Of a stretch of 64,000 bases of DNA, positions 10,463-33,002 are shown piece by piece. Source of the stretch: a virus; the IMG/VR virus record IMGVR_UViG_3300042691_044682, positions 1 to 64,000 of that record; one strand, 5' to 3'. The notes below the pieces were generated by a model. It worked only from the letters and a program-made list of their open reading frames with translations. It was not told where the DNA came from and did no database searches. A program made the translations under genes and the position numbers. The stretch's first letter is position 1. Every line of letters begins with the position of its first letter.

Positions 10463-10744
10463 TCAGCCCTCCGTCCGCGGGAACCACGGCGAGACCGGGT
10501 TCGCGATCGCGCGCACCAGGCGGATGGTGGCGTCCTCGTAGGCGGTGCGCGCCATGGCAAGGTCGCGGGCCTGCTGCGGGAAGAGATGCCCCACGGCGCG
10601 CAGGGCGGCTTCGACGCGCCCGTGCAGCTCCGCCGCCTTCGCCTCGAAGGCCTTGGCCTCGTTCATGAGTCGGCGGCAGAGCGCGTCGATCTCGGCCTGG
10701 GTCAGATCCCGGTAGCCGGTGATCTTGGTGTGCTGGTCCTTCAC
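10463..10744 (-). CDS. acb2: Acb2/Vs.4-like cyclic-nucleotide sponge (anti-CBASS)
   Basis: QHTKITGYRDLTQAEID...MN..K at the N-terminus and LAMART..E.A...LVRAIANP.S at the C-terminus match the Acb2 pattern; 93 aa. Confidence 0.8.
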   Translation of the reverse strand: MKDQHTKITGYRDLTQAEIDALCRRLMNEAKAFEAKAAELHGRVEAALRAVGHLFPQQARDLAMARTAYEDATIRLVRAIANPVSPWFPRTEG

Positions 10745-10746
10745 GC

Positions 10747-11241
10747 TCAGCCCTCCTTTGCCTTGGTGACGGCGACGGCCGCATCATCCACCGACACGAC
10801 CCCCAGGTTTTTCGCCAGCCCACCCCGAATGGCGCGCGGCGTGTCGCGGCGGGGGCAGATGCCCTGCCGGCAGATAACCTCGTACCCGTCCGGGCACGCG
10901 CAGTTGCCCCCAACCCGCGATATGGCCTGGGCAGAAGGCGGGCGCAGCAGGGCGCCGACCTGGATCTCGTCCCGCATGAGCCAGATGGCGTCGGCGGCGT
11001 GCTTCAGCGCACGCGCCACGGCCTCGGCCCGGCGGCCGTTCTCACCGCGCAGGGGCCGAAGCGGCTGCAGATCAGCCCGGATGGCGTCGATCAGGTGGGC
11101 GGCGTCGCCGAGCGCACAGCGCATCGCCACGGGGTCGTGGCCGACCTTCTCGCGGTACGCCCGCATGGCGGCCAGCGCCTGCTGCTCACGCTGGCCCACT
11201 TGGCGCTCGGCGGGAATCGGATCGTTCGGGTCGTCGCTCAT
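10747..11241 (-). CDS. Hypothetical protein
   Basis: ATG 11241 overlaps the upstream stop. Confidence 0.6.
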   Translation of the reverse strand: MSDDPNDPIPAERQVGQREQQALAAMRAYREKVGHDPVAMRCALGDAAHLIDAIRADLQPLRPLRGENGRRAEAVARALKHAADAIWLMRDEIQVGALLRPPSAQAISRVGGNCACPDGYEVICRQGICPRRDTPRAIRGGLAKNLGVVSVDDAAVAVTKAKEG

Positions 11242-12432: not shown

Positions 12433-12804
12433 CGGCGTTGCGGTGCCTTGCCCTGCGAAGCCCTGCCTTGCCTGCGATGCCTTGCGATGCCCAGCCTCGC
12501 CTCGCCTTGCCTTGCCTGCCCTGCCCGGCCACGCCAGACCCAGCCCCGCCAGGCCATGCCTGCCGTGCCCCGCCATGCCCGGCCACGCCGTGCGCCGCGG
12601 TGCCTCGCCTTGCCTGCGCTGCCATGCCCCGCCAAGCCCCGCCATGACTAGCCATGCCTGCGGTGCCCTGCCCCGCCACGCCAGACCCAGCGACGCCTTG
12701 CCTTGCCTGCCCTGCCCGGCCACGCCAGACCGTGCCGTGCCATGCCTTGCCTGCCATGCGGTGGCACGCCTCGCCTAGCCTCGCCTAGCCCGGCGCCGCC
12801 TGCG
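12433..12804 (-). ncRNA. GGY-NN pentamer array A (8 units; putative guide RNAs)
   Basis: 68 in-phase pentamers (mostly GGC-NN; GGT/CGC/GTC variants) in units of 9,8,9,8,10,8,8,8, each preceded by GGCA/CGCA. Confidence 0.85.
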
Positions 12805-13237
12805 TCGGACCTTCCACCAGCGCCCCCATTGCCGCCTCGATGTGCGGCGCCAGGGACGCGTAGCGGCGGTACCGCTCGAGGACGCGATCGACATCGAGCC
12901 GCATCCGCCGCAGGAGCACCTCCATGTCATCCTCGTCCTGCAGGACGGCGGTGATGGTCCGGTAGGTGTTCCTGGCGACGGTCACGTAGGCGCGGACGGG
13001 CACCAACGCATCGTCCGGCCGCGGCAGCATCGTCACCGCGGCGCGGATCACCCGCCCGGCCTCGATCAGCAGCAGCTTCGCCTGCGCGTCGTCCGCATCC
13101 CAGGTGAAGGCCGCGTGGAGCGCCGTGTTGGAGCTCCGCGCGAAGTCGATCACAGCCTCCTTGGTGAGGACGCCGCCGTTCATCTGGCGGACGACCTCGA
13201 GCTCGGCGAGCTGCGACTGGGTCAGCATCCTGCTCAC
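12785..13237 (-). CDS. Accessory protein coupled to the RAMP gene
   Basis: GTG overlaps the RAMP stop (GTGA); LTKEAVIDFAR...LHAAFTWD motif; 3' end overlaps array A. Confidence 0.8.
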   Translation of the reverse strand: MSRMLTQSQLAELEVVRQMNGGVLTKEAVIDFARSSNTALHAAFTWDADDAQAKLLLIEAGRVIRAAVTMLPRPDDALVPVRAYVTVARNTYRTITAVLQDEDDMEVLLRRMRLDVDRVLERYRRYASLAPHIEAAMGALVEGPTQAAPG

Positions 13238-13926
13238 GGCCGCTCCTGGATCCGGAAGCTGCCCCAGCCGACGCCGGCGCTGTTCTTGCTGTCCGCCCGG
13301 CCCTCGCCGATGCCGACCTGCTCGCCCACCCGCGACATCAGGTTCGCGATGTCGGTGGCGGTGAACTGGTCGGCGTCGAAGCGGACCGTCACGTCCATCT
13401 CCCACTCGCGCCACATGGGCCGGGTGCGGATGTCGATGACCCCCGTCGCGTTGCGGGTGGGCAGGTCGCTGCGGATGGGCTCGGGGCCGAGGATGCGCAC
13501 CAGCGGCGTGCCGTCGATCCGGTCGAAGCCGTGCGGCTCCACGAAGACCGACATCTTCGCCAGCGTCATCTTGAAGTTCACGAGCCGGCAGGCGGAGATC
13601 ATGCCGCTGCGGAAGGCCCCGGCATGGACGCCGTCCCAGCCATCGGTGGAGATGTGCCGGGCCTCGTTGAAGGCGGCGTCGAAGTCCTTCGCGTCGCGCT
13701 TCTTCTTGCCGCGGGCGGTGGACCCGGCGGCCTGCTTCTCCATCATCGCCTGCATGGCCTTCGCGGGGAACCGCGAGATCACCAGCGGCGCGGTGCCGAT
13801 GATGTGGAAGGTCACCATGCGCATGTTGGGCGCGGTGATGGTGATCGGCTGGGCGCCGTCGCCCAGCTCGTCGCCGCGCCCCTTGGCCGATCGCTTGGCC
13901 TTGGCGCCGGCAGTCATCCCATCCAT
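13234..13926 (-). CDS. Stand-alone Cas7/RAMP-like protein (Vipr-like)
   Basis: 230 aa; beta1 VTFHIIGTAPL, VHAGAFRSGM helix and C-terminal Gly-rich loop VGIGEGR...GVGWGSF; AAGGA RBS before ATG 13926. Confidence 0.8.
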   Translation of the reverse strand: MDGMTAGAKAKRSAKGRGDELGDGAQPITITAPNMRMVTFHIIGTAPLVISRFPAKAMQAMMEKQAAGSTARGKKKRDAKDFDAAFNEARHISTDGWDGVHAGAFRSGMISACRLVNFKMTLAKMSVFVEPHGFDRIDGTPLVRILGPEPIRSDLPTRNATGVIDIRTRPMWREWEMDVTVRFDADQFTATDIANLMSRVGEQVGIGEGRADSKNSAGVGWGSFRIQERP

Positions 13927-14019: not shown

Positions 14020-14319
14020 CGGCCTCGACCGGCCTGGCCTTGCCTCGCCGAGCCGAGCGAAGCCCGACCGCGCCTAGCCACGCCTGCCGTGCCCGGCCGT
14101 GCCTTGCCAGTCCACGCCCTGCCTGCCGTGCCCGGCCGCGCCAGTCCTCGCCCTTCCAGTCCTAGCCAAGCCTGCCGCGCCATGCCGAGCCCCGCCTGTC
14201 CGTGACTAGCCATGCCTGCGGTGCCTCGCCACGCCCTGCCACGCCTAACCAGGCCTCTACACGCCTCGCCTGCCGTGCCACGCCCGGCCTAGCCCCGCGA
14301 AACGCAGCCAGGCCCCGAC
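14020..14319 (-). ncRNA. GGY-NN pentamer array B (6 units; putative guide RNAs)
   Basis: 56 in-phase pentamers in units of 9,10,8,9,7,13 separated by GGCA/CGCA. Confidence 0.85.
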
Positions 14320-21183: not shown

Positions 21184-21303
21184 CCGCCGCATCGCGGGCC
21201 GCCGGGAACCTTCAAGCGAAACACGAAGGTTCCCGGCGCGCCAACGGATCGCCGCCGCCCTCCCGGCACCGTCCTTCGAGACGGAGGGCATAGGAGACAC
21301 CGC

Positions 21304-22260: not shown

Positions 22261-22542
22261 ATGGCCGAGATCTTCTTCCTCGCCATGGATCTCGGCAACG
22301 ACGCGTTCGGGCACCAGCCCGATCGCGCCGCGACCGCCGACGACATGCGGCCCGAAGTGGTGCGCATCCTGAAGAACCTGGCCGATCGCGTCGAAGCCGG
22401 CGGCCCCATCCAGACGGATGGGTCCTACCGGCTGATCGACAGCAACGGCAACACGGTCGGCTACGCCGGCGTGAAGGAGGACGGACCGCGGCGCTCCCCC
22501 CTCATTTGGGAGGGCCTCGCCCGCCTCGTCGACGGCGAATGA
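22261..22542 (+). CDS. Hypothetical protein
   Basis: AAGGAG; NDAF...EVVRIL..LA...D.NGNTVG. Confidence 0.65.
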   Translation: MAEIFFLAMDLGNDAFGHQPDRAATADDMRPEVVRILKNLADRVEAGGPIQTDGSYRLIDSNGNTVGYAGVKEDGPRRSPLIWEGLARLVDGE

Positions 22543-22632
22543 GCCTGCCGCCGCCAGGGCAACCTGGCGGCGCGCAAGCTGCGCCTCGCCCCCGGGCACA
22601 GCCCGTCGATCACAGGGGGCACGGAGACCGCA

Positions 22633-23082
22633 ATGCGGGATTTCGTCGACATCGGGGGCACGCCTCATGACGAGGAGTGCGCCCAGATCGGGGACAGCTT
22701 TCCCCATGGCCAGGAGCTCAACAAGCTCGAGTGCCGCGCCTACATCCTTGCGCTGCGCCGCCACTACGGGCCCGAGCCCGACGGCGCCTCGCTGGTGATC
22801 AAGGCCAACCCCCACGACTTCGGGACCTGGCGGGAGGTGCGCTGCACCTTCGAGCGGGAGAACGAAGCCGCGCGCGAGTACGCCTACAAGGTCGAGAACG
22901 GACTGCGCTTCTGGGCGCACGGCTGCCTATCGGCCCCGGTGGTGTACGACGACAGGGGGCGACCGAAGACCATCCGCACCAAGGATGGCGACGTGCCCTT
23001 CACCGAGGACGCGATCGCCCAGGCGTCGGCCGATGCCTGCTGCTGGCCGGAGGAACAGCCATTACCAGCCCCGATCGCATGA
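22633..23082 (+). CDS. Conserved phage hypothetical protein
   Basis: IG.TP.DE.CAQIG...NPHDFGT..EV motif. Confidence 0.7.
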   Translation: MRDFVDIGGTPHDEECAQIGDSFPHGQELNKLECRAYILALRRHYGPEPDGASLVIKANPHDFGTWREVRCTFERENEAAREYAYKVENGLRFWAHGCLSAPVVYDDRGRPKTIRTKDGDVPFTEDAIAQASADACCWPEEQPLPAPIA

Positions 23083-23414
23083 CCGCCCTGCCCGAGCTGC
23101 TCGGCCTCGCCGAGCACGCCCGCAAGAGCCACGCCTACTGGCTGCGCTGCGCCCGTGAGGGCGGCAACGGCCAGTACGGCCGGGCCTACTGCCTCGACGG
23201 CGCCGCAACGTGGCGCCGTCGCCTCGGCCAGCTGCTCGCAGAGATCCGCGCGCGGCCGGACGAGCTCGCCGCCCTGCGGCGCCGCCAGGCGCTCAAGGCC
23301 CAGCGGGACAAGCTGCACCAGCAGCAGGCCAAGCTCGCCAAGTCCTACGCGAGCCGGATGAAGAAGCTCGAGGGACGGCTCGTCGCCGTCGATCGCGAGC
23401 TCGGCAGGACCTGA
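23079..23414 (+). CDS. Hypothetical coiled-coil protein
   Basis: ATGA-coupled. Confidence 0.6.
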   Translation: MTALPELLGLAEHARKSHAYWLRCAREGGNGQYGRAYCLDGAATWRRRLGQLLAEIRARPDELAALRRRQALKAQRDKLHQQQAKLAKSYASRMKKLEGRLVAVDRELGRT

Positions 23415-23501
23415 GAGTCCGGCGCCCCTCCGGGGGCGCCGGCGCTAGTGGCACCACGCCCCCGGGTGCCGCCCTTCGAGGGAGGGGGCAGGAGCATTCA
23501 C

Positions 23502-23915
23502 ATGCCCGAGAAGACCGTCGAATTCAGCAAGGAGGGCCTCAAGCGCTCCGGCTTCGACGACGACGTGAAGGCCGCCCTGCAGCCGATCTGCGACGCCTAT
23601 GGCGTCGAGGTCGAGCTGCGCGGCGGCATCATCGACCGCCCGGTCGCCTACACGATGAAGGTCCACTTCACGAAGGCCGACCCGGCCGCGGAGCGCACGG
23701 CCTTCGAGCGGTGGTGCCGCAGCTTCGGCGTCATGCCGGAGCAATACGGCCACCGCTTCACCAACGGCGGCGTGGAGTTCGAGCTCATCGGATTCGAGCC
23801 GGGCCGGCCCAAGTTCCCCCTCAAGGGACGGCGGGTCCAGGACGGCAAGGTCCTGCTCTTCACCAGGGCGTCGGCGAAGCACCTGACGCCCCCGCCCCAG
23901 GCCGCCGCGGCCTGA
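23502..23915 (+). CDS. Hypothetical protein
   Basis: Leader plus AGGAG. Confidence 0.65.
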   Translation: MPEKTVEFSKEGLKRSGFDDDVKAALQPICDAYGVEVELRGGIIDRPVAYTMKVHFTKADPAAERTAFERWCRSFGVMPEQYGHRFTNGGVEFELIGFEPGRPKFPLKGRRVQDGKVLLFTRASAKHLTPPPQAAAA

Positions 23916-24012
23916 GCGAACGCCTGGCGCCCTGAAAGGGGCGCCAGTGCAAGCGGCGCCTACGCCCCCCGGGCTCCGCCCGTCGAGAATGGGGGGCAAG
24001 GAGACCATCACC

Positions 24013-24459
24013 ATGGCCTTCGAATACGCGCTCGCCCGGCTCAAGCCGAGACCGAGCGCCTGGAACCTGTTCCATACCCGCGAGGAGGCGGAAGCCTCCC
24101 TGCCCGCGCTCAATGCCAGGCCCAAAGAGCCGGATGAGGATGCCTACCGGGTCATGACCCGGCAGGAATTCCAGACGGCCCAGGAGGCCTACTGGCTGGG
24201 CGACGGCGGGCTCACCGAGATCACGGCCGAGCGGTACGACGAGATGCTCAACGTCCTGCCGCCGGTCGCCTGGGAGCGCCAGGAGGGAGTGGAGCGGTTC
24301 CTGATGAGCGAGTTCACCATCGGCAACCTCACCGAGCAGTACGCCCAGGCCCATGGGCGCTTCTTCTGCCGGATCGTGAACGCGCACGACCGCTCGACCT
24401 GGATTACCGGCGCCGAGATCGCCCGGCACGTCCAGGCCGAGCAGACGGTGGGGGCATGA
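24013..24459 (+). CDS. DUF1419-like hypothetical protein
   Basis: EITAERYDEMLNVLPP...F.MSE motif. Confidence 0.55.
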   Translation: MAFEYALARLKPRPSAWNLFHTREEAEASLPALNARPKEPDEDAYRVMTRQEFQTAQEAYWLGDGGLTEITAERYDEMLNVLPPVAWERQEGVERFLMSEFTIGNLTEQYAQAHGRFFCRIVNAHDRSTWITGAEIARHVQAEQTVGA

Positions 24460-24797
24460 CAGCCCTCCCCCGCTTCAAGATCGGCACGAACCGCGGCCGC
24501 CGGCGCATCTGGCTGGACGGCCGGCGGCTGGCCGATGCGGGCTTCGTAGGCGGCACCGTCTACGAGTGCCTGGTGCGCCGGGGGGAGATCGTCTGCACGA
24601 TCCCCGAACCCGGCGACCGCGAGCCGATCGCGCCCCCGCCCGCGGGGGCGACGGTCGGCCAGCGGAAGGTGACCGGCCGGCCCGACGGCAAGCCGATCAT
24701 CGACATCTCCGGGAAGGCGGTGGAGACCGCCTTCCCCGCCGCCGAGACGGTGAAGGTCCGGTTCGAACCGGGCCGCATTACCATCACGAGCGGCTGA
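24456..24797 (+). CDS. Hypothetical protein
   Basis: ATGA-coupled; IGTNRGRRRIWLDG. Confidence 0.6.
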   Translation: MTALPRFKIGTNRGRRRIWLDGRRLADAGFVGGTVYECLVRRGEIVCTIPEPGDREPIAPPPAGATVGQRKVTGRPDGKPIIDISGKAVETAFPAAETVKVRFEPGRITITSG

Positions 24798-24887
24798 CCG
24801 AACGCCGCCGGCGCCCCCGCGCGCCGGCGCGCATGCATCCCTCCGCCCCCAGGGGATGCCCGTCGCGAACGGGGGCAAGGAGTTCCC

Positions 24888-25121
24888 ATGGAACACGAGA
24901 CCAAAGTGCCGCTCCCGCTCACCATCGGCGAAAGCTACATCGGTGACGGGGTCTATGCCCGGTTCGACGGATACCAGATCTGGATCCACGCCGATCGCGA
25001 TGGCAGGCGGCACGAGATCGCCCTCGAGTGGCGCACGCTCGAGGGCCTTAACCACTATGCGGCCCGCCTGGCCGAAGCCCTGAAGACCCAGCATACGGCC
25101 GCGGCAAAGCCGCCGGCCTGA
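24888..25121 (+). CDS. Hypothetical protein
   Basis: YIGDGVYARFDGYQIW motif; RBS. Confidence 0.65.
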   Translation: MEHETKVPLPLTIGESYIGDGVYARFDGYQIWIHADRDGRRHEIALEWRTLEGLNHYAARLAEALKTQHTAAAKPPA

Positions 25122-25417
25122 TGACGCTCCAGGAGGTCAAGCGCCTGCTCCGCCATGGCCCATGGGCCTGGCCGGGCGGGTACCCGCTCTACCTGGTCTG
25201 CGACGATGGCGGAGCCCTGTGCTTCACCTGCGCCCGCAAGGAGTGGCGCCAGGTGGTCAGCGCGCACCTGCGCCCTTGGGCGCAGAATGCCGAGATCGAC
25301 CAGTGGCGCATCGCTACCTACGACACGAACTGGGAAGACCCCGAGCTGCAGTGCGAGCACTGCGGCAAGCGGATCCAGAGCGCGTACGCCGAAGACGAGG
25401 CCGTCCAGGCCTCGTGA
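25121..25417 (+). CDS. Zinc-binding hypothetical protein
   Basis: AWPGGYP, CFTC and CEHC. Confidence 0.7.
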   Translation: MTLQEVKRLLRHGPWAWPGGYPLYLVCDDGGALCFTCARKEWRQVVSAHLRPWAQNAEIDQWRIATYDTNWEDPELQCEHCGKRIQSAYAEDEAVQAS

Positions 25418-25509
25418 CCCGACTGCCTGGCGCCCTCCGGGGCGCCAGCGCAAGCGACGCCTACGCCCCCGGGCTTCGCCCGTCGAGACAGGGGGCAAGG
25501 AGTTTCCTC

Positions 25510-25983
25510 TTGGAAAGCCCACCGAATTCCGACGACACCGTCGTCCAGCTCGCAATGGAGGCGGCCACCAACGCCGCCGCCAAGGTCGTCCAGGATCATC
25601 TCGGCGTCACCACCGGCGACTATGCCGCCCAGTGGTGGAGCGGCGCCGATGAACGCTATCCCGGCATCGAAAACCGCCATGGCTTCCTGGGCGCGCTGCG
25701 CGACTACCTGCGTGACCAGCGCGAGCGGGTCGAGGCGGACAACGATTCGGTCGAGGCCGCCCTGCAGTACGCGATCTACGTGCTGCGGGAGCAGACTGGA
25801 CCGATCCCCGAGCGGGCCACCGCGGCCATCAAATGGCTCGAGGACATCCTGGCCCAGCGCGACTGCGCGAACTGGGGCTACGTCGACCTCCAGCCCGACG
25901 ACAAGGGCGTCGTCCGGATCACGACCCGCGGTGAAGGCTGCGATCGGCTCACCAGCCTGATCAGCACCATCATCCGCGGCTGA
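25510..25983 (+). CDS. Hypothetical protein
   Basis: TTG after leader and AAGGAG. Confidence 0.55.
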   Translation: MESPPNSDDTVVQLAMEAATNAAAKVVQDHLGVTTGDYAAQWWSGADERYPGIENRHGFLGALRDYLRDQRERVEADNDSVEAALQYAIYVLREQTGPIPERATAAIKWLEDILAQRDCANWGYVDLQPDDKGVVRITTRGEGCDRLTSLISTIIRG

Positions 25984-26158
25984 GAAGGCCGGGCGACCGT
26001 CAAGGAGATTTTCCCGCCGAAAATCGCCCCAGCGGTCGCCCGCCACCAGCAATGCCTACGCCCCCGGGCCTTGCCCGTCGATCACAGGGGGCGGGAGAAA
26101 ACCCGTGAAACAACACTCGCCTGTGATAGCGTCGAAGCCCCGTCCATGGAGGCCCTCG

Positions 26159-26392
26159 ATGCGGATCCTGCCCCTCGCCACCCTTCTGGCGCTCGGCGCC
26201 TGCGCCCTCGAGACCACCTACGTGCCCGTCGGCCAGACCAATGGGCCGATGGAGCAGGCGCGGGCGCGCTGCCAGTTCCAGACCGCGAGCTCGCCCGCCC
26301 TCATCGTGAACGGCGGGCTCAGCACCTCGTTCTCCCTCATGGAGACGTGCATGCGCGGCGAGGGCTACGCGACGGTGGTGGTTCGCCGCTGA
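26159..26392 (+). CDS. Small lipoprotein
   Basis: MRILPLATLLALGA-C lipobox; C...CM..GY. Confidence 0.6.
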   Translation: MRILPLATLLALGACALETTYVPVGQTNGPMEQARARCQFQTASSPALIVNGGLSTSFSLMETCMRGEGYATVVVRR

Positions 26393-26560
26393 GCAAGCGG
26401 TTTCTGCCGCCGAAAATGGCGATCAAAACCCGATCAAGACGAAAAATGGCGGATTTCTGCCGTTTTTCTTCGTGTTTGGGGTTGTTTTCCTAGCCGCAAT
26501 CACCATTTCTCTATCGTGACAGACAGGCATCCCGCCTGCTGCACGATGGAGAACGAACCC

Positions 26561-26719
26561 ATGCTCAACCTGGCTTTCATCCCCATCCGCCTCGTCCCCT
26601 ACCTCCTGGTGGGCGCCGGCGCCGTCATCGGCGTCGCCGGCACGCTGCTCACCGAACACCGTCTTTTGCCCTGGCTGGCCAAGGACGGTGACGAGAAGGG
26701 CAAGAAGGCGGAAGCCTGA
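26561..26719 (+). CDS. Small membrane protein
   Basis: One transmembrane segment; RBS. Confidence 0.5.
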   Translation: MLNLAFIPIRLVPYLLVGAGAVIGVAGTLLTEHRLLPWLAKDGDEKGKKAEA

Positions 26720-26731
26720 GCCACAAAGCGA

Positions 26732-26825
26732 GCCCCCGGCGCCGAAACGCCGGGGGCCGCTGGAGCCTTGCAGTGCCGAGCCCAGCCAAGCCATGCGCTA
26801 CCCCGCCTGGCCTGCCGCACCGGCC
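26732..26825 (-). ncRNA. Orphan single-unit GGY-NN RNA (unit C)
   Basis: GGCA plus 10 pentamers (26812-26763), 10-bp hairpin at 26732-26757, promoter immediately upstream. Confidence 0.7.
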
Positions 26826-26828
26826 ACG

Positions 26829-26857
26829 AGAATCACACAGAACTAGGTTCCTCTCAA
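26829..26857 (-). promoter_or_regulatory. Sigma70-like promoter for the orphan unit
   Basis: TTGAGA-N17-GATTCT. Confidence 0.5.
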
Positions 26858-26939
26858 GTCGAACGTGCATCCGCACCAACGGATCGCCGCCGCCTCCCCG
26901 GCACCGTCCTTCGAGACGGGAGGCATGGAGAACTGCCCT

Positions 26940-27209
26940 ATGGCCGTCCCCCAGATCGTCATCGCCGCAGCCCCCTACGCGGGCGCGCTCGCCTTCACCA
27001 CCCTGCGGCTCGCCGCCGCCGGGTTCGGCCTGGTCGCCGGCCTCTGGGCCGCCGACAAGGCCTTCGGCTTCAGCCGGAAGGCGGACGCCCAGCAGCAGGC
27101 GCTGCTCGACATGATCAACAAGCAGCCCACCGCGGAAGGCGGCGACCCCGTCGCCGCCCCGCCCCCGACGCCGAACGGCCTGGACCCCCACCCCGCGGGC
27201 CAGGCCTGA
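26940..27209 (+). CDS. Small membrane protein
   Basis: Leader plus RBS; hydrophobic. Confidence 0.55.
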   Translation: MAVPQIVIAAAPYAGALAFTTLRLAAAGFGLVAGLWAADKAFGFSRKADAQQQALLDMINKQPTAEGGDPVAAPPPTPNGLDPHPAGQA

Positions 27210-27346
27210 CGGCCAGAAGCCCCCCGGTGCCCCCGCGCCGGGGGGCTTCGTCGTTCCTGCATCCCATTGAAATCTAGGAACAAATCCCCATGTAACTGGT
27301 ACGCCGCGGCATCCCGCCCGGCGCCCCCCCCACATGGAGAACCACC

Positions 27347-27739
27347 ATGCAGGAGCAGCTCGTCGAGCTGCCCCACAGCCCTTATGCGGCGCTGTGGGCG
27401 ACGCTCGACAAGGACGCGCTCGCCATCGCCGAAACCAGAGGCTGGCATGAGCTCAAGCCCAACCAGGAACCGCCTTACGAGGAGTGGCTAGGCCACATCA
27501 TCCTCGCCGGCGGTCACTTCATGCTCCGTCGCGACGCCTTCGAGCTCGCGACGTGGCTGGGCGACAACGAGCTCATGGGACGCCTCTTCGACGCCCTCCC
27601 ATGGGCCGGTGACACCCTCGCCCCCCTCACGCTCGAGGAGGTCAAGGCAGACCTGCGCGCCTTCATCGCCCCCATCCAGGAGACCATCGCGGACGAGAAC
27701 CAGTCCGAAATCCCCTGGCACGCGGCACAAGCCGCCTAG
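27347..27739 (+). CDS. Hypothetical protein
   Basis: GGAGA RBS. Confidence 0.65.
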   Translation: MQEQLVELPHSPYAALWATLDKDALAIAETRGWHELKPNQEPPYEEWLGHIILAGGHFMLRRDAFELATWLGDNELMGRLFDALPWAGDTLAPLTLEEVKADLRAFIAPIQETIADENQSEIPWHAAQAA

Positions 27740-27837
27740 CCGATACGCCGCCGCCGGCCCCACGCCGGCGGCGCGCGCGCCGGCCCGCCCGCCCCTCGGG
27801 CCGCCCGTCGAGGCAAGCAGGGGCCATGGAGAACACC

Positions 27838-28167
27838 ATGAAGACCTTCGCCGATCGCGCCCTCGAGGCGCTGATGGCGCCCGAGAACCAGGGCGTCATG
27901 CAGCGCTTCGAGCGCGCCTTCAACAATGCCGCCGTCGACGCGTTCGGCGACGGCACCGTGGTCCCGGCCGAACTCGTGACCGGCCTGGTCGCGGGTGTCA
28001 TCGTGACGATGTGCCTGAACCTGGCTGCGGCGAACCCGCAGGAGGGTTGCACCGACACCGACACCGCGATCGCGTTCGCCCACGAGGTGGTCCTCGCCGC
28101 CGGCACGCTCCTGAACAATCGGGAGCGCCGCATGGAGGCGGCGCCCGCCACCGTCACCACCCACTGA
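27838..28167 (+). CDS. Hypothetical protein
   Basis: GGAGA RBS. Confidence 0.6.
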   Translation: MKTFADRALEALMAPENQGVMQRFERAFNNAAVDAFGDGTVVPAELVTGLVAGVIVTMCLNLAAANPQEGCTDTDTAIAFAHEVVLAAGTLLNNRERRMEAAPATVTTH

Positions 28168-28199
28168 CCAACGCCCCCGGCCTCGCGCCGGGGGCGCTC

Positions 28200-28677
28200 G
28201 TCCCCACCCGCCGGATCGCCCGGCGGGTCCGTCGAGCCCGCCGGATCGCGGGCGAAGGGACACTCACCATGCACATCGCAGTCTTCATCAAAGAGGCGGG
28301 CTACGACACGGATGGGAACGAGGGCCCGGTAGATGGAGTGATTTCCTGTCTCGACCGGCGCGCGGCCGAAAGCCTCGCGGCGGGCGGACAGGCCTGGATC
28401 GCCCACAAGGACACGATCCTGCTCCCCATCACCGCCGCCCAGTACGACCGCATCCGTGTCGTAGCCGCGCGTGACAAGTCCGATCTCCTGTATTTGGACG
28501 AAGACGCGCCGAGCGACCTCAAAGACGAAATCTACGACCTGGTGGCCAACCACGAAGCCCGCGAGCTGATTGGCTGACCCCTGACCAAGCGCCCCCGGCT
28601 TCGGCCGGGGGCAGTCCCCACCCGCCGGATCGCCCGGCGGGTCCGTCGAGCCCGCCGGATCGCGGGCGAAGGGACAC
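28200..28677 (+). repeat. 64-bp exact direct repeat (28200-28263 and 28614-28677)
   Basis: Identical leader copies flanking gene 28269-28577. Confidence 0.9.
28269..28577 (+). CDS. Hypothetical protein
   Basis: ATG after the repeat leader. Confidence 0.6.
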   Translation: MHIAVFIKEAGYDTDGNEGPVDGVISCLDRRAAESLAAGGQAWIAHKDTILLPITAAQYDRIRVVAARDKSDLLYLDEDAPSDLKDEIYDLVANHEARELIG

Positions 28678-28680
28678 CCG

Positions 28681-28842
28681 ATGAACACCACCATCACCGT
28701 CCTGCAGGCCCTCGGCACCGCCGGCGGCCTGCTCTTCCTGCTGAAGGTCGGCCTGGTCCTCGGAGAAGACATCTCCGAGTGGCTGCACCGCCGCCGCGCC
28801 GCCAGCCGCGCCATCATCACCTACGATTCCCGGAGGCGCTGA
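28681..28842 (+). CDS. Small membrane protein
   Basis: 53 aa after the repeat leader. Confidence 0.5.
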   Translation: MNTTITVLQALGTAGGLLFLLKVGLVLGEDISEWLHRRRAASRAIITYDSRRR

Positions 28843-29096
28843 TGGTCCTGGGCTGGCTCGCCAGCGTCGCGGGCGCCTGCGCCCGCATGACGCTCACCCG
28901 GCCGGATCAGTGGTACCACCCGAGCAACGAGCCGCCCGACACCTCGCGCGGCGTCTGGCTCCAGGGCCCCAGAGGGCTGTCCGCCTTCTGCCTGCCCGAG
29001 GACGCCTGCGCCTCGATCGTGTCGGTGGTCTCGCCCACCGGGTCCATGATCCACCAGGAACGGCACATCGCCGACCTGGCCAACCAGCAGACCTGA
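28842..29096 (+). CDS. Hypothetical protein
   Basis: TGATG-coupled. Confidence 0.45.
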   Translation: MVLGWLASVAGACARMTLTRPDQWYHPSNEPPDTSRGVWLQGPRGLSAFCLPEDACASIVSVVSPTGSMIHQERHIADLANQQT

Positions 29097-29194
29097 CCGA
29101 TGAGCCATGGCCCGCCCAGCGGGCCATGCGCTAACGGAACGCCGCACCCCGCCGGCACCGTCCTTCGAGACGCGGGGTCATGGAGACATCCCCC

Positions 29195-29971
29195 ATGCCC
29201 AACCACGTCACCAGCAAGATCACCGTCTCCGGCCCCGCCGAGGACGTCGCCGCCTTCAAGGCGCTGATGATCCGCGAGGAGCCGACGCTCTACGGCCAGT
29301 TCCACGCTGATCCCGCGCTGCGGGGCCAGCCGACGGGCGAAACCGAGACGATCTTTGACTTCGGCCGCATCATCCCCCGCCCCGAGATTCTCGAGCGGAC
29401 GGAGGAGAGCGGCGATTCCGCCCTCGGGCTCTTTGCCCTCGGCGTGGAGAATTCGGAGACCACTTTCGGCTTCCCCGCCCCGAATCCGCTCACCTATCCG
29501 TGGGTGAAGGATCTCGGCATCGAGACGCGCGAGCAGATGCTCGCATGGCTCGAGAAGGAGCGGCCCGAGGCCATCGCGGCGGCCAAGACCGCCATCGAGG
29601 CCAAGAAGCTGACGGGGCACACAAGCTGGTACCCCTGGTCCATCGCCAACTGGGGCACGAAGTGGAACGCCTACTCGTTCCAGCTTCACGAGGAAGCGCC
29701 GGGACGGCTCGTGTACACGCACGACACCGCCTGGTCCTTCCCCGAGCCCGTCTACGACGCGCTCTCCGAGCGCTTCCCCACCCTCCGGATCTGCATCGCG
29801 TGCTTCGACGAATGCAGCTGCTTTGCCGGCCGCGGGGCTTACAACGCCGGGCCCGACGACCAGCCCTTCGAAATCGTCGACGCGACGGACAGCATCTACG
29901 AGGAGGTCTATGGCCACCCGCCCGAGCGCTTCGACGACGAAGAGCCCGAGGCGGGGCCGGCCACCGCCTGA
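29195..29971 (+). CDS. YubB/DUF1281-like protein
   Basis: MPNHV, FDF..IIP.P, WY.W...NWGTKWNA and TAWS.P motifs. Confidence 0.75.
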   Translation: MPNHVTSKITVSGPAEDVAAFKALMIREEPTLYGQFHADPALRGQPTGETETIFDFGRIIPRPEILERTEESGDSALGLFALGVENSETTFGFPAPNPLTYPWVKDLGIETREQMLAWLEKERPEAIAAAKTAIEAKKLTGHTSWYPWSIANWGTKWNAYSFQLHEEAPGRLVYTHDTAWSFPEPVYDALSERFPTLRICIACFDECSCFAGRGAYNAGPDDQPFEIVDATDSIYEEVYGHPPERFDDEEPEAGPATA

Positions 29972-30069
29972 CCTGCGCCCCCGGCTTCGGCCGGGGGCGT
30001 TCGTCCCTGTCGGCCCGTCCTGGGCCGGCCCGTCGAGCCCCGCCGGATCGCGGGGCGAAGGGACACCAC

Positions 30070-32215: not shown

Positions 32216-32270
32216 CGCGCCTCCGCACAGGCGCCACACTTCTATGTGGTCCGGGCGAGGCTAGGCAAGG

Positions 32271-33002
32271 CTATACGTCGTCGGCCAGCAGCACCATGAG
32301 CGCGACCCGCCCGCGGATCTGGAAACTGTCGCCATCCACGCGCCAGACCTCGCCGCGATAGGGCCACGGCAGCTCGACCCGAACGCGCTGCATCGTGCCC
32401 GAATTGCGGAACACGAGAACCGCGCGCGCCGCCTCCCCCTCGCCCTCCACCGCCACGCTGCGGACGGTGACCTCATGGCGCCCCTCGCGGATCCGGTGCA
32501 CGAGCACCAGGTCGCCATCGCGCAGCGGGCGGGTCATCGAAGCGAAGGCCTGCACGCCGATGTAGCTGCCGGCAGGGTAGATGGCGTTCGCATGGCCATC
32601 GAGCAGAACCGCCGCCTCGTCGGCCGCAAGGCCGGGCGGCAGCGCCAGGTGCTGCGGCGGGGCGATGTCGGCCTCATAGGTCGGCCGCCACATGCCGTCG
32701 GCCGCCGCAACCCGGACCGGCACGGTCGCCGCCTTCACGCCGGTCGCCGGCGTCTCGCCGATGATCTCGGTCACCGTGGCGCCGGGGATTGCGCGCGCCA
32801 GCCGCTCGAGCGTCTCCTGGCTCAGCGTCTTCGAGTGGCCGTTCATGAAGTTGTAGATGGCATTGGCCGAGCGCAGGCCGGCCGCGCGCGCCCAGTCCGC
32901 CGCACGGAGGTCGTGCCGCTGCATGAAGGCCTCGAGGGCGCCGCGGCGGCGTCGGTACAGCCGATCGCCGCCCCGAGGCCCGTCTAATGGCTGCGTCATC
33001 AT
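32271..33002 (-). CDS. CI-like repressor (HTH plus degenerate S24 domain)
   Basis: WARAAGLRSANAIYNFMNG HTH; C-terminal ..IYPAGS..., LRDGDLVLV and IRGRV; divergent from a cro-like gene. Confidence 0.75.
   Translation of the reverse strand: MMTQPLDGPRGGDRLYRRRRGALEAFMQRHDLRAADWARAAGLRSANAIYNFMNGHSKTLSQETLERLARAIPGATVTEIIGETPATGVKAATVPVRVAAADGMWRPTYEADIAPPQHLALPPGLAADEAAVLLDGHANAIYPAGSYIGVQAFASMTRPLRDGDLVLVHRIREGRHEVTVRSVAVEGEGEAARAVLVFRNSGTMQRVRVELPWPYRGEVWRVDGDSFQIRGRVALMVLLADDV

Follow-up and report, generated by a model that had tools for sequence, protein, structure and literature searches.

Between two early genes of a GC-rich phage lies a solitary run of GGC-type pentamers, far from the gene of the RAMP protein beside which two arrays of such repeats are found. 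What does an isolated unit of this kind do, and why does it stand where it stands? The window analysed here is a stretch of 64 kb from the start of a virus record that measures 92,321 bp and has a GC content of 71%, and a preliminary description of it had taken the run for a self-contained, functional trans-acting RNA. A frame for the question is provided by the VIPR systems, a form of CRISPR-like DNA silencing described in 2026 (10.64898/2026.04.26.720920). Their RAMP protein, Vipr, polymerises on a vrRNA composed of GGY-NN repeats, the NN letters of which pair with double-stranded DNA while every third base of the target, usually a codon wobble base, is skipped. Binding silences the transcription of competing phages and satellites (10.64898/2026.04.26.720920). 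Staggered vrRNA arrays, whose units are joined by 1-nt-overlap junctions, are presented in Fig. S18 of the same work, and VIPR structures in a companion paper (10.64898/2026.04.26.720927). Table 1 lists the features of the phage genome that are discussed below.

Table 1. Coordinates of the orphan tract, of its neighbours, and of the VIPR operon and arrays.
Feature	Position	Strand	Remarks
Array A, eight staggered vrRNA units	12443-12800	-	Downstream of the vap-like gene
Coupled 150-aa gene	12785-13237	-	phrog_15946; no Pfam match; candidate vap accessory gene by position
vipr gene, 230-aa RAMP	13234-13926	-	phrog_4652; its product would take up the guide
Array B, six staggered vrRNA units	14020-14299	-	Upstream of vipr
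Adjacent gene, 57-aa (52-aa from 26561) single-pass membrane protein	26546-26719	+	The guide spells a variant of it
Near-target site TEHRLLPW	26651-26674	+	ACC GAA CAC CGT CTT TTG CCC TGG; inside the adjacent gene
GC-rich 12-bp hairpin	26731-26758	-	After the orphan unit; from RNA folding
TGCA junction-like 4-mer, then AGGCTC	26763-26772	-	Units 9-10 (TGCAA GGCTC) of the preliminary description
Proposed guide, eight GGY-NN pentamers	26773-26812	-	NN = CA GG AG AT TT TG TC AC
Ten in-phase pentamers	26763-26812	-	NN series CA GG AG AT TT TG TC AC AA TC
GGCA	26813-26816	-	Junction letters before the ten pentamers
Vestigial leader pentamer GGTGC + GGCA	26813-26821	-	1-nt-overlap junction GGCA|G, as between units of arrays A and B
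Proposed promoter TTGAGA-N17-GATTCT	26829-26857	-	Weak; 8/12 against the sigma-70 consensus

The Vipr protein and its arrays

The gene that had been described as a RAMP gene some 12 kb from the tract lies at a distance of 12.8 kb and is specifically a vipr. No Pfam match was obtained for its 230-aa product, which has 26 relatives in IMG/VR at 49-57% identity; in every one of these that has arrays, the pentamer arrays lie on the vipr strand. A profile of 17 homologues matches a single PDB entry, 36pp_D, which is the Vipr of SUSP1 (E 2.4e-5, positions 13-184 of 200), and an AlphaFold (AF2) model with a pLDDT of 78 has Csm3/Cas7 chains as its top Foldseek matches, with a probability of 1.0. R169 aligns with the thumb residue R138 of SUSP1 Vipr, and E208 and R210 align with D177 and R179 of the G-loop, all three residues being invariant in the family. 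Elsewhere in the protein, Ser51 (codon at 13774-13776, minus strand) takes the place of SUSP1 H17, the histidine that contacts the first G of GGY and that is also found in most relatives. CGC triplets are tolerated in the arrays (9/118), and the orphan tract has both a CGC and a TGC; a link between Ser51 and this tolerance is a speculation.

The vipr gene and the coupled gene that accompanies it on the minus strand are flanked by arrays A and B and lie beside the gene of the small terminase. The large terminase (8142-9851, minus strand) is closest to terminases of Rhizobium phages, at about 37% identity, so that the host of the phage, with its 71% GC, may be an alphaproteobacterium. The sequencing runs that contain the phage are labelled as fungus and freshwater metagenomes.

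The orphan locus is a member of the published VIPR systems and not a new system. The phage encodes a homologous minimal RAMP with RRM core, G-loop, and thumb, and its tandem GGY-NN units number at least four, with a conserved GGY and a variable NN. Successive units overlap by 1 nt, as expected of staggered arrays, and 1-nt-skip reading places the skipped base at the codon wobble, both for the core of array unit B6 and for the orphan read against its adjacent gene. The B6 reading provides a positive control for the skip code as this phage uses it. When the 9-unit core of B6 was searched as a skip-1 pattern, 46 exact matches were obtained in IMG/VR, all of them in frame on the serine-recombinase motif YARFSS[DE][NK]Q. 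Since this is the catalytic-serine motif, the arrays of the phage appear to target recombinases of other mobile elements, and recombinase targeting has been reported for the SUSP1 arrays (10.64898/2026.04.26.720920). The whole of unit B6 (14020-14084, minus strand) decodes to V-Y-A-R-[FL]-S-S-[DE]-[NK]-[HQ]-R.

Anatomy of the orphan tract

The tract occupies a gap of about 220 nt between the plus-strand genes 26546-26719 and 26940-27209. The flanking genes all lie on the plus strand, so that the antisense orientation first reported is correct. The elements were likewise recovered in the positions originally given, with TTGAGA at 26857-26852, a spacer of 17 nt, GATTCT at 26834-26829, and then GGCA, ten pentamers, and a hairpin. 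The triplets of the pentamers are, in order, GGC GGC GGT CGC GGC GGC GGC GGC TGC GGC. Runs of this kind were scored in one pentamer phase, with +1 for each GGC, -0.5 for one mismatch, and -2 otherwise. A scan of the whole contig brought out only arrays A and B, the orphan tract (5.5), and a 4-unit run at 32254-32273 (4.0). For comparison, the arrays of the 92-kb contig were masked and 200 Markov surrogates were generated at each of orders 1, 2, 3, and 5. None of them attained the score of the orphan; a score of at least 5 was found in 2-4% of the surrogates, and a score of 4 in about half of them. The 4-unit run consists of four perfect GGC-NN pentamers on the plus strand between two minus-strand genes, and with a score that is met in about half of the surrogates it provides no evidence for another guide.

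The tract is better read as eight pentamers followed by TGCA than as the ten-pentamer unit first proposed, because 7 of 13 array units end in GGCAC-[GC]GCA and the orphan has GGCAC-TGCA at this very place. Eight pentamers and 4 nt make up 44 nt, which is the modal (commonest) length of the array units, and the match to the neighbouring gene, described below, stops at unit 8, in agreement with the unit end deduced from the arrays. What stands of the original unit is the common phase of its ten pentamers; its extent gives way to the 44-nt reading. Within the eight pentamers, 7 of 8 triplets are GGY and the remaining one is CGC, the variant that occurs 9 times in the arrays.

The comparison with the arrays goes further. 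In arrays A and B, one unit is set off from the next by the 4-mer [GC]GCA followed by a G, which forms the 1-nt overlap, and the orphan is preceded by GGTGC GGCA|G. GGY conformity is 80% in the orphan (8-10 pentamers) and 84% in the arrays (118 pentamers), and the NN letters are variable and AT-rich, with 40% GC in the orphan and 45% in the arrays against 71% in the genome. The orphan and the arrays thus have the strand, the GGCA|G junction, and the unit-end motif in common. The view that the tract obeys the same grammar as the arrays and is not a microsatellite is upheld by these agreements, and by the fact that decoding under VIPR rules spells the adjacent gene. Judged by its sequence, the tract very probably belongs with arrays A and B as a further guide unit of their system, with a putative RNA as its product. 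No Rfam family was found in the whole window at the gathering threshold, and DNA contigs from four sequencing runs are identical to the window across the orphan locus, so that they carry no comparative information; no RNA run was found among the sequencing runs listed for the phage.

The promoter and the hairpin that had been assigned to the tract fared less well. The sequence TTGAGA-N17-GATTCT is present at its place, in an AT-richer stretch that precedes the tract. It is weak, with 8 of 12 positions of the sigma-70 consensus, and was not called in a promoter scan; moreover, its proposed -35 box lies within a plus-strand element of which a second copy, with no guide after it, precedes gene 21304. 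The two copies of this element (26845-26935 and 21205-21300, plus strand), situated upstream of genes 26940 and 21304, have about 90% identity over about 70 nt. They share an exact repeat of 19 nt (26876-26894 = 21241-21259) and end in a CCGTC...GACGG hairpin beside the ribosome-binding site. The element is probably a recurring 5' leader of early genes. A promoter shared with array B was rejected, the local alignment of the leaders of array B and the orphan having a score of 14, which is not significant (P 0.44).

A hairpin does follow the orphan unit, but it folds with 12 bp (26758-26731) and not with the 10 bp first given. Two roles are conceivable: it may cap or terminate the guide RNA at its 3' end, or it may terminate the plus-strand gene whose end is at 26719. 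A terminator scan left it uncalled because there is no T-run on the plus strand and only 4 T in 8 on the minus strand. It may not belong to the unit, since GC hairpins without a T-run that follow stop codons may simply end plus-strand genes in this genome. A hairpin of 12 bp, much like this one in its spacing, also closes array B, and the arrays of relatives are often followed by a hairpin. The terminal hairpins of the orphan and of array B have no common sequence, and the units of this clade are without a tail.

The hairpin directly after a plus-strand stop codon, and the likeness of the stretch around 26845-26935 to the region upstream of gene 21304 (about 90% over about 70 nt), would also suit an explanation without any guide. 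The GCC-periodic stretch would then be part of a plus-strand intergenic region made up of a terminator hairpin and a 5' UTR element, or a product of chance. However, the repeated plus-strand element excludes the pentamer tract itself, and chance has to contend with a run score met in 0 of 200 surrogates and does not explain why the decoded guide matches the gene next to it (P about 0.0003, see below). We regard a plus-strand cis element or a chance run as very improbable.

What the guide reads

The guide was decoded with the published 1-nt-skip code, in which the strand opposite the guide is read as codons with a free third base. The result is GTx GAx CAx AAx ATx CTx CCx TGx, which translates as V-[DE]-[HQ]-[NK]-[IM]-L-P-[CW]. 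A scan of the 92-kb genome in six frames with this degenerate peptide had TEHRLLPW as its top match, with a BLOSUM score of 39; the next match reached 32, and array guides of equal length reach 24-31 in the same scan. TEHRLLPW belongs to the small membrane protein whose gene stands next to the tract, about 90 nt away from the guide. The match keeps to the actual reading frame of this gene, and the skipped bases coincide with wobble positions. Against the two flanking genes, a score of 39 was attained by 0 of 2000 base-shuffled guides and by 1 of 3000 permutations of the unit order (P about 0.0003).

The allele of the phage itself agrees with the guide in 10 of the 16 letters read. The six mismatched letters are accounted for by threonine in place of valine (2), arginine in place of lysine (2), CTT in place of ATx, and TTG in place of CTx. 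Five successive codons of the site, GAA CAC CGT CTT TTG, form a cluster of rare codons, the 5-codon window ranking in the lowest 0.6% of windows; TTG, CTT, and CGT make up 3.5%, 5.1%, and 5.4% of their respective codon families.

With the top match of the whole genome lying in the early operon, it could be supposed that the guide binds its own site at 26651-26674 despite the mismatches. Vipr, as it accumulates, would then throttle the plus-strand early operon and provide a timing switch. Yet a match of 10 letters in 16 is below the 80% used for natural targets, the VIPR papers report no self-targets above 80%, none of the array guides self-targets, and the allele of a relative, described in the next paragraph, fits the guide better than the phage's own. 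Self-regulation hence appears quite unlikely. When the contig was searched as DNA, neither the array guides nor the orphan guide had a self-target above the level of shuffled guides.

Only three homologues of the small membrane-protein gene are on record. The closest sister, P0011, is encoded on a contig of 88,068 bp, which also encodes homologues of the next two genes, and has TEHRLLPW like the phage studied here. P0012, retrieved in a HMMER search of 1.84 billion representatives, is 66% identical in a gapless alignment and has VEHKLLPW, with valine and lysine exactly where the phage's own allele fails to match. The guide spells 7 of the 8 residues of this allele. Because valine, glutamate, histidine, lysine, proline, and tryptophan fix the first two letters of their codons, P0012 would match in 14 or 15 of the 16 letters, depending on its leucine codons; this figure, deduced from amino acids, exceeds the 80% that the VIPR papers apply to natural targets. 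The dinucleotide AC of the last unit recurs at the ends of array units, and if it were a constant unit end, the resulting 7-unit guide would match the phage's own allele in 10 of 14 letters and that of P0012 in 12-13 of 14. P0012 stems from a contig of 1,194 bp, and P0004, a homologue of the product of the downstream gene, stems from a contig of equal length, which suggests that synteny is probably kept. No synteny was found for the region 22500-30000 in INPHARED, and collections of viruses, metagenomes, and genomes yielded none for the flanking proteins.

Other candidate targets were considered and rejected. One was found within gene 27347-27739 (site 27482-27510, 14/20, in wobble register), where the sisters P0007 and P0008 show no shift towards the guide. 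The 8-unit (16-letter) pattern has six matches in IMG/VR, which is chance level, all in contigs with 34-38% GC. The S-restricted pattern has eight matches in GTDB, again at chance level: six in pyruvate phosphate dikinase of Thermoanaerobaculia, one in an integrase-like ORF of Streptomyces, and one other.

Proposed role and known systems

The explanation that we favour, with moderate confidence, regards the tract as a dispersed vrRNA gene with one guide, which belongs to the VIPR system that the phage itself encodes and is aimed at rival relatives. A minus-strand RNA would run across 26821-26731, would be trimmed at the GGCA|G junction, as in staggered arrays, and would be capped by the hairpin. 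Protomers of Vipr (gene 13926-13234) would each bind one GGY, and eight NN dinucleotides would be presented. Loaded with this guide, Vipr may silence the early operon of relatives with a VEHK-type allele by means of a transcription roadblock. The phage's own copy, mismatched in 6 of the 16 letters read, should escape, and the difference between 10/16 for this copy and the deduced 14-15/16 for P0012 suggests that the guide probably targets rival alleles and spares its own. No figure for the mismatch tolerance of VIPR has been published. The position of the guide beside a resistant allele would keep weapon and shield together in recombination between co-infecting relatives.

The likeness to the neighbouring gene could also be a fossil. 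The tract would then be a decaying relic that is no longer transcribed or loaded, either one unit duplicated out of an array or the remainder of an earlier guide locus. The weak promoter speaks for such a remnant, as does the lack of an RNA run among those listed, and no dispersed units were found in three complete relatives. Decay is nevertheless hard to reconcile with a tract in which GGY has been retained in 7 of 8 triplets, a conformity no worse than that of the arrays, in which both junction motifs are intact, and which still spells 7 of 8 residues of the allele of a living relative. We consider a relic unlikely.

If the guide is indeed directed at rivals, the locus would be a clean example of a guide genetically linked to a resistant form of its target, in a phage that is rich in GC and whose arrays are staggered. 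It would also be a concrete case of discrimination between self and non-self by a gapped code, in which the carrier's allele is altered partly through rare synonymous leucine codons. Does this extend to other loci? We suggest, as a conjecture that may well fail, that dispersed VIPR guides as a rule adjoin a recoded, immune copy of their own target, or alternatively that the adjacency marks the birthplace of the guide. The rule, if true, would describe a module in which weapon and shield are linked and are passed by recombination from one related phage to another, with a penalty on recombinants in which the two parts have come apart. The targets of dispersed guides could then be predicted by looking next door, and the linkage would describe an allele-specific war of phages on their close kin. 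To our knowledge there is no adaptation machinery for VIPR, and the adjacency may for this reason mark where and how new guides arise. A precedent for guides set apart from the operon is provided by the contig of the Vipr relative L006 (G005), in which a third staggered array, with six units (10709-11046, plus strand), is present 6.6 kb from vipr, in addition to two flanking arrays. The neighbour rule applied to this distal array gave no clear outlier match, the top match of its last unit being weak and situated about 250 nt downstream.

How does the locus compare with what has been described? It resembles the published staggered VIPR in its Vipr homologue, its two-gene operon flanked by pentamer arrays on the same strand, its 1-nt-overlap junctions, its 1-nt-skip wobble code, its residence on a phage, and the presence of a recombinase among the array targets. 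It differs in having a single guide, which is separated from the operon by 12.8 kb and stands in antisense orientation in the early region. From the SUSP1 system it differs in a Vipr that is only distantly related (E 2.4e-5), in the replacement of H17, which contacts G1, by Ser51, and in units without a pseudoknot tail.

Stand-alone guides are known as well. Solo (orphan) vrRNAs occur on F5 satellites and on VIPR-null phages of the SUSP1 family, and some of them match rivals better than self (10.64898/2026.10.15.759431). They are defined by the absence of vipr from the contig or by a nearest vipr beyond 20 kb (10.64898/2026.10.15.759431); here the 92-kb genome itself contains a vipr gene, at a distance of 12.8 kb, and the tract is accordingly a dispersed guide of a VIPR-positive phage. 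Both have a stand-alone GGYNN guide away from vipr, conflict among related mobile elements, and a match to self that is lower than the match to a rival. By contrast, the published targets of solo vrRNAs are vipr genes, other vrRNAs, satellites, and host REP decoys, none of them a variant of a gene adjacent to the guide. The preliminary description had seen in the tract the definition of a minimal programmable scaffold, a claim of novelty that has to be dropped, since the literature already contains both single vrRNAs and solo vrRNAs. A guide beside a recoded copy of its own target is not described in the VIPR papers 10.64898/2026.04.26.720920 and 10.64898/2026.10.15.759431, and what is new at this locus, at the level of sequence, is the relation of the guide code to the adjacent gene and to the allele of a relative. 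Nearest in logic are the mini-CRISPR arrays borne by archaeal viruses (PMC6858448), which comprise one or a few guides, match close relatives and not their carrier, and have been proposed to exclude rivals. Whereas these rely on the Cas machinery of the host and on contiguous spacers, the guide described here would be served by the virus's own Vipr and is read in a gapped code.
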